Source: Escherichia coli (lineage in GTDB: Bacteria > Pseudomonadota > Gammaproteobacteria > Enterobacterales > Enterobacteriaceae). From it: a stretch of DNA of 64,000 nucleotides. The notes below the pieces were generated by a model that had not been told where the DNA came from, did not search any database, and saw nothing but the letters and a program-made list of their open reading frames with translations. Within the stretch, counting starts at the first letter, position 1, and every line of letters starts with the position of its first letter. The translations under genes and the position numbers were made by a program. The DNA lies in assembly GCF_003790525.1 (NCBI RefSeq), contig NZ_CP033635.1. One strand, given 5' to 3'. Positions 58,220 to 60,363 of this stretch are shown here, in pieces.

Positions 58220-58573
58220 ATGATGCCACGACGCAGCGATATTGAAATAGCCTGGTATTCTTCGATACAGCAAGAGCCGAATGGCCGGAAGACCGTCACT
58301 ACACAGCGATTTGTTCAGGGGTTGAGCAAAGTTAACTGGGAATTCTCACTCAAAGATGCTAATGCCTGGATCGAATCCAGCGTGAGCACTTTTAAATATT
58401 TATCAATGGTAGAGGGGGAAGAACGCACTTTCATGCTCTATAGCCTTGATTTATGCGATGCACATTTCCACAACCTAGTCAGGACAACCTCTTTTCTAAT
58501 AAAATGTAGATGCCTAATTTTAGGCGTCTACATAATTAATGATGATTTATTACAATTATTTTCTAGATACTAA
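58220..58573 (+). CDS. Hypothetical protein (117 aa), no recognisable domain
   Basis: 3' part of ORF track 57974..58573; start chosen at ATGATG with GAGG RBS because the upstream extension overlaps the dinI-like gene and its promoter. Confidence 0.4.
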   Translation: MMPRRSDIEIAWYSSIQQEPNGRKTVTTQRFVQGLSKVNWEFSLKDANAWIESSVSTFKYLSMVEGEERTFMLYSLDLCDAHFHNLVRTTSFLIKCRCLILGVYIINDDLLQLFSRY

Positions 58574-60363
58574 TCGTGAAATAATGACATTGAATAAATC
58601 CACGACGGGGTCATGTTAATTAACTTATCATAATTAAAGTTATCACTGTTTTCACAGACATGCTTTGCGTTGTGATTAAATGATACCAATCCAGATTGAA
58701 TGAAATGTTTATCAACTAATGAAGATACACAGAAAAAAGGTTTTCCATTGGCGTCGGTTATGAATTTTTTAATGGCGTCTTTATCATTTGATTTAATAAG
58801 TACAGGAACATCACCAAAATCGAGTGGGGTTGTGCTCATTTTAAAGACGAAATCTTCATCTTTTTCTTCTCCGATTTTGTTGAAAATATTACTTGGTAGC
58901 ACCCCATTTTCGACGAAATATTTATTTAGTGGTGGTTTATGGTCACCGTAAAAGACGATTACAGCATTTGGATCTATTTTTTCTACTTGCTGTGAAAATT
59001 GAACGAATCTTTTGACTGCCTCATTAATCTCATAGGTATAAACACCTTCACCATAATCATTAATGTGTTGATAAGGACCATGAGTTGACATAGTGATCAA
59101 ATGTACAAAAATATCTTTGTTTCCTGCATTTTGGATGGCTTTTAATGCTGCATTGTAAAGCAGGTAGTCATCAGGTTGCCACTGCCATGGTTTTTTAATA
59201 CTGCTATACTCTGGTGGTAAATCTCCCATATTAATAATGCTATCAAATCTATCAAATCCAAATTTAGGGTAAATTTTATTCCTATACCAAAAGTCTGCTT
59301 GGTAATTATGTGCTGCGAAAGTAATATAGCCTTTGTTTTTCAGGGCATTAGGTAATGCGTCAACTTTTGGTTTGAATGCATCTGAATATTCTTGATAGAT
59401 GATTCCTGATATTTTATCTGAATTACTTGGTAGTCCTGTCAGCATTTCAAATTCGGCATTTGCGGTACCTCCACCGTAAACTGGTGAGATGGCCCGTAAT
59501 TCACTGTAACCTTCATCAATAACAGGTTTGAAATTTTCTCGGAAGTTTTTTTTATCATACCAACATGATTCACATAAAACATAAATAATGGTTTTATTTT
59601 TTATATGAGTGGATACTAAAGATCTTTTTTCATCTAAATATCTTAATTGTTCTGCATCAGTTGCATGTGGTACAGATTTTCTGACACTTGTTTGTATTAT
59701 ATGCATTGGCAAGCCATTAACGCCAATATTTTGAGACCAATTCCAGTAAATATATTTTATATTTAAGTTGTTCGCGCTGGAGTTTATGATTTCAGAAATC
59801 CTATTGTTAGGGCTAAAAATGGTTCCAATATAGGGGTAGAATGAAAAGGGGATCGTAATGATAATTAAAAGAAATAACGATATATAATTTTTTCTTGTTG
59901 TGACCGTTTTTTTGCTAAGTAGGATTGAGATTATTGCGCCAATTAGAATAGCGACAGAGTAAGTAATGGATGATAAGTTGAGGTATTTTCCTGCGACACT
60001 CAAATTGAATCCAGAAACAATGTCATTAAATGATAAAGGCTCACCGGTTAACGCCATTTTAGTACTGTTCACAAACATCAATGTTATAATTGCGATGCCT
60101 GATAAATAAGAACATAGAAAAATTGGAATGTTTATTATTCTAAATAACAAATAAATAAACAAAATGGGGGATGAACGCCAGATGAAATTCAATATTGCAC
60201 CAATTAACTCTTTAGGCGGTTCAATATTTCCTATGATAACTATTGACTGATTTAGAAAACAAAATAAGTACAATAAAAACATAACGTTGACAATGTCGAA
60301 AACATATGATTTCAACTTTAAGTTTTTATATCTTGTAACGACTTTGCTCAAACCGATACTCAT
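58570..60363 (-). CDS. LtaS/sulfatase-family (alkaline phosphatase superfamily) membrane-anchored transferase, phosphoglycerol/phosphoethanolamine transferase-like
   Basis: ORF track 597 aa; about 5 N-terminal TM segments then motifs YVLCESCW, VYGGGTANAEFEMLTG, FYGDHKP typical of LtaS/OpgB/EptA-type enzymes; markedly AT-rich coding sequence. Confidence 0.75.
   Translation of the reverse strand: MSIGLSKVVTRYKNLKLKSYVFDIVNVMFLLYLFCFLNQSIVIIGNIEPPKELIGAILNFIWRSSPILFIYLLFRIINIPIFLCSYLSGIAIITLMFVNSTKMALTGEPLSFNDIVSGFNLSVAGKYLNLSSITYSVAILIGAIISILLSKKTVTTRKNYISLFLLIIITIPFSFYPYIGTIFSPNNRISEIINSSANNLNIKYIYWNWSQNIGVNGLPMHIIQTSVRKSVPHATDAEQLRYLDEKRSLVSTHIKNKTIIYVLCESCWYDKKNFRENFKPVIDEGYSELRAISPVYGGGTANAEFEMLTGLPSNSDKISGIIYQEYSDAFKPKVDALPNALKNKGYITFAAHNYQADFWYRNKIYPKFGFDRFDSIINMGDLPPEYSSIKKPWQWQPDDYLLYNAALKAIQNAGNKDIFVHLITMSTHGPYQHINDYGEGVYTYEINEAVKRFVQFSQQVEKIDPNAVIVFYGDHKPPLNKYFVENGVLPSNIFNKIGEEKDEDFVFKMSTTPLDFGDVPVLIKSNDKDAIKKFITDANGKPFFCVSSLVDKHFIQSGLVSFNHNAKHVCENSDNFNYDKLINMTPSWIYSMSLFHD

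Follow-up and report, generated by a model that had tools for sequence, protein, structure and literature searches.

What kind of enzyme is encoded by a single AT-rich gene that lies intact among the remains of a prophage in Escherichia coli, and what might it do for its host? The question is raised by an open reading frame at 58570..60363, on the minus strand of a 64,000-nucleotide stretch of E. coli DNA (assembly GCF_003790525.1, contig NZ_CP033635.1; hereafter, the window). An initial annotation, made from the letters alone, took this frame for an LtaS/sulfatase-family membrane transferase carried as prophage cargo, with a possible role in modification of the cell surface. Based on the computational analysis described here, we propose that the product, which we call the transferase, is an LtaS/GacH-type enzyme that would use phosphatidylglycerol as its donor and a surface glycan as its acceptor, and that its gene arrived as phage cargo. 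To this chain as a whole we assign a probability of about 0.55, and its parts are graded separately below.

The frame comprises 597 codons and a stop codon (58570-58572) with an ATG start at 60363, in agreement with the position and length first reported, and it contains all three of the motifs quoted at that time, namely CESCW (residues 264-268), GGGTANAEFEMLTG (residues 297-310) and FYGDHKP (residues 471-477). The marked AT-richness that had been noted relative to the neighbouring core genes is also evident. The overall GC content of the gene is 0.325, ranging from 0.29 to 0.36 along its length, against approximately 0.5 in the flanking core genes cls, tonB and yciA, 0.493 in the window and 0.47-0.48 in the other genes of the island in which it resides; it is 15 GC points lower than even the remaining prophage genes. 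At such a base composition a stop codon is expected about every 13 codons, and the probability that an open frame of 597 codons would arise by chance is ~6e-21; therefore, we consider this a real gene. The product is 100% identical to ECSMS35_RS09540 of E. coli SMS-3-5, which RefSeq already labels 'LTA synthase family protein' (LTA, lipoteichoic acid), and to that extent the kind of enzyme is known. What is uncharacterised is the subfamily to which the transferase belongs, its mobile single-gene habit and the function that we propose for it.

Sulfatase (PF00884) is the only Pfam domain in the transferase. It spans residues 257-481 (58921..59595, minus strand; E = 1.4e-25) and corresponds to a catalytic core of the alkaline-phosphatase/sulfatase fold that is predicted to be periplasmic. 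For the family profile and the conservation analysis we used 57 homologues; the Sulfatase domain is present in all 57 aligned proteins, and the only other Pfam assignment among them at E<=0.001 is one match to DUF6057. When searched as a single sequence against all PDB sequences, the transferase matched GacH (2e-10), LtaP and LtaS, and the 57-member profile matched GacH (7.8e-19), LtaP (2e-15) and LtaS/YflE (9e-12 to 4e-10). The PDB matches of the profile are exclusively phosphoglycerol transferases, every solved one of which was recovered, and no phosphoethanolamine transferase or PbgA sequence in the PDB reached 1e-3. An AlphaFold2 model built on the family alignment had a mean predicted local distance difference test score (pLDDT) of 90.7 and a predicted template modelling score (pTM) of 0.88, and Foldseek placed LtaP, GacH and LtaS at its top ranks (probability 1.00), with MCR-1, EptC and PbgA lower. 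The multi-pass N-terminal anchor and alkaline-phosphatase-superfamily domain foreseen from the letters are thus borne out by five helices, by a strong sulfatase/LtaS-type match and by the predicted structure. There are also many intact full-length homologues, so that neither of the two outcomes named at the outset as refuting this interpretation was observed.

The active site tells the same story. We aligned the transferase GGGTANAEFEMLTGLP to GacH GGGTANMEFQTLTSLP with HMMER and read across the roles of the metal, nucleophile and glycerol-phosphate residues established for GacH and LtaS (bioRxiv 10.1101/337519). The Mn2+ ligands have counterparts in E265 (59569-59571; GacH E488, LtaS E255) and in D474/H475 (58939-58944; GacH D711/H712, LtaS D475/H476), and the nucleophile, itself a Mn2+ ligand, in T300 (59464-59466; GacH T530, LtaS T300), all codons being on the minus strand. 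H428 (59080-59082) aligns with GacH H650, which contacts the phosphate, while H352 (59308-59310; GacH H580, LtaS H347) and R361 (59281-59283; GacH R589, LtaS R356) align with the residues that contact the glycerol hydroxyls. E265, T300, H352, R361, H428, D474 and H475 are invariant in 57 of the 57 homologues, and purifying selection at the catalytic residues is clear across the wider family. W359, the counterpart of LtaS W354, is among the key codons yet not among the conserved residues listed for the 57 homologues, and F358 of the transferase stands where GacH has N586. Beyond the core lies a family-specific C-terminal subdomain (residues 482-597; 58573..58920, minus strand) with conserved C545, C570, P586 and W588. 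A second conserved cysteine pair, C264/C267, flanks the metal-ligand glutamate, and both pairs may form periplasmic disulfides.

The core is preceded by a membrane anchor at residues 19-183 (59815..60309, minus strand), for which hydropathy and the AlphaFold2 model indicate five transmembrane helices; the long hydrophobic helices lie at approximately residues 19-44, 53-76, 81-106, 130-150 and 157-183. Basic residues are concentrated at the N-terminal end and in the loop formed by residues 151-156. The loops predicted to lie inside have lysine-plus-arginine counts of 5/0/2, and those predicted to lie outside have counts of 1/1. Following the positive-inside rule, these counts lead us to predict an N terminus in the cytoplasm, a five-helix anchor and a C-terminal catalytic domain in the periplasm, as in LtaS; a periplasmic catalytic domain had been expected at the outset. 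This architecture depends on the start codon. RefSeq places the start at M103 in SMS-3-5 (495 residues) and at M96 in strain MS 21-1 (502 residues), and we reject both since three of the five helices would be lost with the stretch encoded by codons 1-103 (60055-60363). Given that homologues of 590-600 residues cover 99-100% of the 597-residue form and that 91% of the family occupy the first 102 residues, we take the 597-residue product to be the right one. Judged by sequence and predicted structure, every defining feature of the LtaS-type family that can be tested by such means appears to be present in the transferase, and we consider its placement in the LtaS/GacH-type enzyme class highly probable.

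Membership of a class is not orthology, and the transferase stands apart from each of its characterised relatives. Its best sequence match among solved structures is GacH of Streptococcus pyogenes, which, like SccH, decorates rhamnose cell-wall polysaccharides. The active-site motif is nearly identical in the two proteins (GGGTAN-EF), the Mn2+ ligands, the threonine and the histidine/arginine pair are conserved, GacH likewise modifies a finished polysaccharide outside the cytoplasm, and some homologues of the transferase also stand beside rml (rhamnose) genes. In contrast, GacH has 11 membrane helices rather than 5, shares ~18% identity with the transferase in structural alignments, and is a Gram-positive protein encoded in its own polysaccharide cluster, whereas the transferase is Gram-negative and is encoded on a prophage remnant. 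Edgar et al. (10.1101/337519) delimited the GacH family by eleven transmembrane helices, a blastp E value of <1e-70 and at least 33% identity; with five helices, an E value of 2e-10 and ~18% identity, the transferase falls outside it. LtaS and LtaP of Staphylococcus, Listeria and Bacillus share with the transferase the arrangement of five N-terminal helices and an extracytoplasmic sulfatase-fold domain; they differ in that the transferase has no Gram-positive glycolipid anchor pathway to serve and that its family has a C-terminal subdomain of its own. A score of 27.4 bits against a cut-off of 970 for NCBIfam NF053595 rules out an LtaS orthologue.

The initial annotation had also likened the protein to OpgB and EptA, and here it fared less well than for LtaS, to which GacH and LtaP can be added. 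OpgB (MdoB) is a periplasm-facing, phosphatidylglycerol-dependent glycerophosphate transferase of the same superfamily fold and from the same organism, but it is a protein of 763 residues with another architecture, encoded by a core gene that is not mobile. Orthology with OpgB was rejected on a BLASTP E value of 0.26, an hhalign result (84%, E 7e-6) that covers 205 core columns, and no match to an NCBIfam OpgB model. For enzymes of the EptA/MCR/Lpt type, the similarity is at the level of the fold only, with neither a Pfam match to their N-terminal domain among the 57 family members (E<=0.001) nor a match of the family profile in the PDB at 1e-3.

From the enzymology of GacH and LtaS (10.1101/337519) we infer the following model for the action of the transferase. 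A divalent metal, which is Mn2+ in GacH and LtaS, would be held by E265, T300, D474 and H475 and would activate Thr300. Within the outer leaflet of the inner membrane, the activated threonine would attack phosphatidylglycerol at its head group, with release of diacylglycerol and formation of a Thr300-bound glycerophosphate intermediate, in which H428 would contact the phosphate and H352 and R361 the glycerol hydroxyls. Subsequently, sn-glycerol-1-phosphate would be passed to a hydroxyl of a periplasm-exposed glycan that is either undecaprenyl-linked or already on the lipid A-core. The acceptor would be a surface polysaccharide, such as O-antigen or another undecaprenyl-linked polymer, or possibly the core of lipopolysaccharide (LPS), and the outcome would be added negative charge and a new epitope on the surface glycan. 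By analogy with the phosphoglycerol transferases, glycerol phosphate from phosphatidylglycerol is the group that we think is probably transferred, with odds of roughly two to one in our estimation. That the acceptor is a surface polysaccharide or LPS is a possibility that we place a little short of even chances. We likewise infer, rather than observe, the donor, the acceptor, the expression of the gene and any influence that it may have on the adsorption of phages or on interaction with the host.

We favour a surface-glycan acceptor because homologues of the transferase recur in O-antigen and other polysaccharide clusters. A search of 5.8 billion proteins found full-length relatives, at no more than 63% identity, in Citrobacter, Pragia, Mangrovibacter, Kosakonia, Enterobacter and Aeromonas. 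Among 1.84 billion cluster representatives, the profile found 371 proteins at E<=1e-30, some 125 of which align along the entire profile, with its family-specific C-terminal part (to position 588); beyond these, scores fall to generic LtaS-like proteins that end near position 474. A pattern scan of one genome per species in 100,044 species yielded 20 loci only, which were spread among Gamma-, Beta- and Alphaproteobacteria, Bdellovibrio and Desulfuromonadales. Outside E. coli, the homologues are single AT-rich genes. In Aeromonas salmonicida, the homologue lies in the O-antigen cluster, between IS66 and IS1595 (IS, insertion sequence) and beside rmlC-wzz-waaL; in Mangrovibacter it comes directly after gnd-wzz, with an IS3 adjoining; and in Pseudomonas putida it is found between rmlD-rmlB-rmlC and wcaJ with a GT2 glycosyltransferase gene. 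In Bdellovibrio and a related metagenome-assembled genome, it has rmlD and a GmhB-like gene on one side and glmS and an exopolysaccharide amidotransferase gene on the other. A Desulfuromonadaceae homologue is followed by a gene for an 1181-residue double GT2 protein, and in Spiribacter a GT2 gene and a sugar epimerase gene are nearby. The surface-polysaccharide part of the role first suggested is thereby supported, indirectly, by homologues in O-antigen or other polysaccharide clusters of six taxa.

Elsewhere the family keeps different company. In Citrobacter the homologue lies in or beside a prophage remnant and adjoins an orphan ogr gene, and in Pragia it stands in a prophage remnant between a phage transglycosylase fragment and an acyltransferase-3/O-acetyltransferase-like gene, with an Rz spanin gene 10 kb away; we count the neighbouring acyltransferase-like gene in favour of a surface-glycan acceptor. 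In Enterobacter asburiae it occupies a variable spot beside an integrase-bearing island, which is not established as a prophage. Orphans with housekeeping neighbours, and with neither polysaccharide nor phage genes nearby, are found in Kosakonia (between cpxP and fieF), in a metagenomic relative (between tyrA and pheA) and in Alcaligenes, Phaseolibacter, Geobacter, Aquamicrobium and Vitreoscilla. In Enterobacter sp. BIGb0383, a DedA-family gene lies immediately downstream of a 53%-identical homologue (L021, 11913-12572), which may be coincidence; the DedA family includes undecaprenyl-phosphate transporters. The homologues of Enterobacterales and Aeromonas are 12-21 GC points below their flanks (9 points in the AT-rich genome of Pragia) and those of Bdellovibrio and Desulfuromonadaceae have the local GC content, which suggests a separation of lineages in which the family is native from those into which it was imported. 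We picture a single-gene cassette that belongs natively to the polysaccharide loci of some lineages and moves horizontally among enterics.

How, then, did the gene come to E. coli? It forms part of a 4.7-kb prophage remnant (56163..60878) that lies between kch and yciI, with its insertion point in the 3' end of the latter, and is absent from K-12. Alignment with the K-12 genome stops at 56162 and resumes at 60868, so that 56163-60867 constitutes an insertion; in keeping with the first impression, the transferase is no K-12 gene. At either edge of the island stands a copy of a 21-bp direct repeat, TATTCA[G/A]AACACTTTCTTAAA; the two copies differ by one mismatch. The left copy, TATTCAGAACACTTTCTTAAA (56142..56162; attL core), is the original 3' end of yciI, now displaced by the insertion, and the right copy, TATTCAAAACACTTTCTTAAA (60879..60899; attR core), provides YciI with the C terminus and stop codon that it has today. 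Since both copies encode, in reverse complement, the residues FKKVF and the stop codon that form the C terminus of YciI, we conclude that the 3' end of yciI served as the phage attachment site and that the phage copy now terminates the gene. Repeats of this sort are the hallmark of an element that has integrated site-specifically at the 3' end of a gene.

The contents of the island are those of a dead phage. Adjoining attL is a pseudogene fragment of a phage integrase, comprising its Arm DNA-binding domain (56349..56477, plus strand; RefSeq annotation), followed by IS3-family transposase fragments (56486..57364, minus strand; phrog_157, 3e-97). A tail fibre or tail spike gene survives as a C-terminal stub of 158 codons (57352..57828, plus strand; PHROG tail-fibre match, 4.6e-34) that is essentially a Peptidase_S74 intramolecular chaperone domain (PF13884, 4.9e-12). 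Next come an intact DinI-like gene (57917..58144, minus strand) and a fragment of a phage hypothetical protein (58220..58444, plus strand; phrog_3893), both identified by RefSeq annotation and PHROG match. Just upstream of the transferase is a frameshifted N-terminal fragment of a peptidase gene associated with the SOS response (60506..60729, minus strand; phrog_1599). Only the transferase and DinI genes are still intact. A DinI gene is typical of the cargo (b) region in lambdoid phages; DinI homologues lie between tail genes and the att site, mid-genome, in phi80, HK140 and phiKO2, and the DinI module of the island is similar to the cargo region of phi80 and HK140. With the integrase at one end and the tail fibre and cargo (b) region, including the transferase beside attR, at the other, the island is the cargo end of a lambdoid prophage from which the middle was removed by an IS3-mediated deletion. 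The window is 100% identical to SMS-3-5 except for an extra, nested 1.3-kb IS3 in SMS-3-5 at 56983-56988, and it therefore derives from a sister strain or from another assembly of the same lineage.

The claims that the gene is prophage cargo and that it occupies the moron position next to tail-fibre remnants both hold, given an att-bounded island with integrase, tail-fibre, DinI and other PHROG-matching fragments in which the neighbours of the transferase are the tail-fibre C-terminal fragment and DinI. We read the gene as a moron because it lies in the cargo region beside attR and because its composition is foreign even to the phage; as a description of the E. coli locus, a moron in a prophage remnant is well supported, and we are confident of a phage-cargo origin for the E. 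coli copy. Our model is that the gene would have come in at the tail-fibre/att end of a lambdoid prophage in yciI and would have outlived the phage after its deletion by IS3.

Within the species the gene is rare and nearly invariant. It is present in 30 of 5426 complete E. coli genomes. Every copy is on the chromosome, has its full length and an identity of at least 99.8%, and is listed as intact in the annotation, and the flanking prophage remnant is confined to these 30 carriers. The carriers were isolated from humans, dogs, chickens or other poultry, and water; SMS-3-5 itself belongs to phylogroup F and to the ST354 lineage of extra-intestinal pathogens. The most divergent copy, that of MS 21-1, differs by three substitutions, of which two are synonymous. 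In that strain an ISL3-family element, ISEc53, and a ClbS/DfsB-family gene are inserted between the transferase and DinI genes (L041, 8298-10055), and the transferase is unbroken.

The carriers do not all have one O-antigen type. SMS-3-5 and at least 14 other carriers have a common O-antigen cluster, which is also present in a strain named CE-O153H30, a name that hints at the O153 type for the SMS-3-5 cluster. The wzy gene of SMS-3-5 occurs in 80 genomes; among the 60 listed are 15 carriers and at least 45 genomes that lack the transferase. The MS 21-1 cluster has an O1-family wzy with rfbBDAC (L046, 4965-15014), unlike that of SMS-3-5 (L043, 13364-19758). We therefore rejected a simple link to any one O-type, the transferase being absent from at least 45 genomes with the SMS-3-5 wzy and present in MS 21-1 with its O1-family wzy. 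Because the carriers differ in O-type, a sugar that recurs in several O-units, or else a conserved glycan, is a likelier acceptor than one particular O-antigen; N-acetylglucosamine is the target of GacH. In SMS-3-5, the annotation gives the wzx flippase gene as a truncated pseudogene, after which comes an IS1A (NC_010498.1, 1049057-1051446; L043, 19057-21446). Normal O-antigen may be absent from SMS-3-5, and at least one carrier may thus be rough.

Several observations weigh against the proposal that the transferase is a phage-delivered modifier of a surface glycan. The carriers have at least two unrelated O-antigen clusters, which makes an O-type-specific acceptor unlikely, and some carriers may be without O-antigen altogether. 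Approximately half of the homologue contexts lack polysaccharide genes, and one homologue (L019, 47% identity) lies two genes from the gene for a 2844-residue GH94 cyclic beta-1,2-glucan synthase, with a short-chain dehydrogenase gene also nearby (11887-21252); this is the sole context that points to periplasmic glucans. The divergence among carriers (three single-nucleotide polymorphisms, two synonymous) is too low to show selection. The AT-rich region upstream of the gene (60364..60512, minus strand) has one sigma-70-like site, TTTACA-18-GATACT at 60512-60483, and a weak purine-rich stretch before the ATG, but the count of such sites is not above that expected from shuffled sequence. The same is true of terminator-like hairpins, a weak example of which (stem 58615-58601) falls inside the coding sequence itself, at its 3' end and before the stop codon.

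There is no PHROG family for the transferase and no close relative in 50,697 phage records, and the viral structures in BFVD include giant-virus sulfatases only and no close relative. Kosakonia at first sight offered a phage carrier, in that four 'viral' contigs in IMG/VR (L008 and L009-L011) have a homologue right after the P2-like series sheath-tube-tape measure-U-D-Ogr. Comparison of a Kosakonia lysogen with a prophage-free genome (L022 vs L012) placed the junction ~240 bp upstream of the gene, and we rejected it as P2-like phage cargo; the gene is therefore on the host side, between cpxP and fieF, and the provirus boundaries in IMG/VR are over-extended. This homologue, then, lies just outside the attR of a P2-like prophage and not inside it. 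No intact phage genome carrying the transferase was found in PHROG, the phage records, BFVD or IMG/VR, no close match was found in plasmid collections, and PADLOC gave no match to known anti-phage defence.

Might the same chemistry serve another acceptor, or the same fold another chemistry? The glycerol phosphate could be added to a periplasmic glucan, either the osmoregulated periplasmic glucan (OPG) of E. coli or a cyclic beta-glucan, as by E. coli OpgB or Sinorhizobium CgmB. The glucan synthase gene near the L019 homologue, weak matches to rhizobial LTA-synthase-family proteins, and the retention of the transferase in carriers of different O-antigen types, which fits an acceptor that does not depend on O-type, are all consistent with this, and OpgB is a known periplasmic enzyme of E. 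coli that uses phosphatidylglycerol. However, E. coli already has OpgB, to which the transferase is barely related, seven independent polysaccharide-cluster contexts stand against one glucan-synthase neighbour, and the decoration of OPG has no obvious use to a phage; we consider a glucan acceptor rather improbable. A different head group, for example phosphoethanolamine from phosphatidylethanolamine, as for Lpt-O/Opt or EptA/MCR, would agree with the shared alkaline-phosphatase fold and the lower-ranked Foldseek matches to MCR-1, EptC and PbgA. Phosphatidylethanolamine is the major phospholipid of E. coli, and a sulfatase-domain modifier of O-antigen on a mobile element is already known (PMC3458804). 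Against such a head group are the failure of the family profile to match any phosphoethanolamine transferase or PbgA in the PDB at E<=1e-3, the invariance of the glycerol-binding histidine/arginine pair of GacH and LtaS, and the lack of an EptA-type N-terminal domain, the one DUF6057 match being all the non-Sulfatase Pfam content of the 57 members. We therefore regard phosphoethanolamine transfer as improbable. Far more doubtful is a processive, LtaS-like polymerase, which would extend a poly(glycerol-phosphate) chain from an anchor, either lipid or glycan, and so furnish a Gram-negative envelope with a polymer resembling teichoic acid. In favour of it, the transferase has the five helices of LtaS and not the 11 of GacH, and both LtaS and LtaP rank among its best matches by sequence and by fold. 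Against it, the closest match by sequence is GacH, which makes a single transfer, the transferase scores 27 bits for the 970-bit cut-off of the NCBIfam LtaS equivalog, and no gene for glycolipid-anchor synthesis is nearby; we give this very little credence.

Whether the E. coli copy acts at all is a separate matter. It may be a silent passenger, an intact and unexpressed relic in a young clone, perhaps silenced by H-NS through its AT content, a state compatible with the biochemical assignment. The island is heavily decayed, the 30 copies among 5426 genomes are at least 99.8% identical, such that intactness may reflect youth, no promoter rises above chance, and RefSeq calls a truncated start; in addition, the O-antigen types of the carriers differ and the SMS-3-5 wzx is truncated. 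Set against this, a 1.8-kb AT-rich frame is unbroken in 30 of 30 genomes despite the IS traffic adjoining it, with everything else but DinI in fragments, the wider family is under clear purifying selection at its catalytic residues, and a gene outliving its phage is seen again in Citrobacter and Pragia. We consider silence unlikely, although not so unlikely that it can be neglected. On balance, we prefer the proposal that the transferase adds glycerol phosphate to a surface glycan.

That proposal has precedents in other mobile systems. Lpt-O/Opt of Shigella flexneri and the phage-encoded GtrABC and Oac are single mobile accessory functions that alter the finished O-antigen in the periplasm and thereby change serotype or phage receptor. 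Lpt-O has a sulfatase domain, is plasmid-borne and transfers phosphoethanolamine (PMC3458804), and prophage gtr genes are an established route of O-antigen modification in E. coli (PMC7685785). Gtr and Oac differ from the transferase in that they add glucose or acetyl groups by means of other folds. Closer in family are pgt1 and pgt2 of Acinetobacter baumannii, Gram-negative LtaS-family genes of the K locus that are named 'phosphoglycerol transferase' and have an undefined role (PMC9676051); the Acinetobacter matches have ~29% identity over a third of the transferase, and pgt occupies a fixed chromosomal K-locus site rather than a prophage. Our searches of the literature found no characterised LtaS-type O-antigen enzyme of Gram-negative or prophage origin and no phage-borne conversion gene that adds glycerophosphate.

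By analogy with these systems, phage-driven surface conversion by the addition of glycerol phosphate is plausible. A bolder statement, which we offer tentatively and would back at about half the odds needed for an even bet, is that this is the first phage-delivered, single-gene glycerophosphorylation of a Gram-negative surface. In that case an AT-rich cassette family of ~125 clusters at 50% identity would be moving among prophages, IS-flanked O-antigen slots and orphan sites, using phosphatidylglycerol to put teichoic-acid-like glycerol phosphate on O-antigen or another envelope glycan; it would probably act on a sugar that several O-types share, or else on a conserved glycan. The transferase is a candidate for a new type of phage-mediated surface conversion, one that would not be surprising in principle, and there is a real possibility that the gene is silent in this lineage. 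In streptococci, the glycerol-phosphate decoration made by GacH alters charge, zinc tolerance and susceptibility to host bactericidal enzymes (10.1101/337519). The known O-antigen conversions by phages of E. coli and Shigella add glucose or acetyl groups, and the known addition of phosphoethanolamine is plasmid-borne. If the gene proves to be silent or to decorate glucans, it would be an ordinary accessory gene. If our proposal is true, it would provide a charge-changing route to serotype and receptor variation that is invisible to typing of the O-antigen cluster. Furthermore, as a single gene that can be expressed in K-12, it makes a convenient starting point for work on the many unassigned 'LTA synthase family' genes that Gram-negative bacteria possess.

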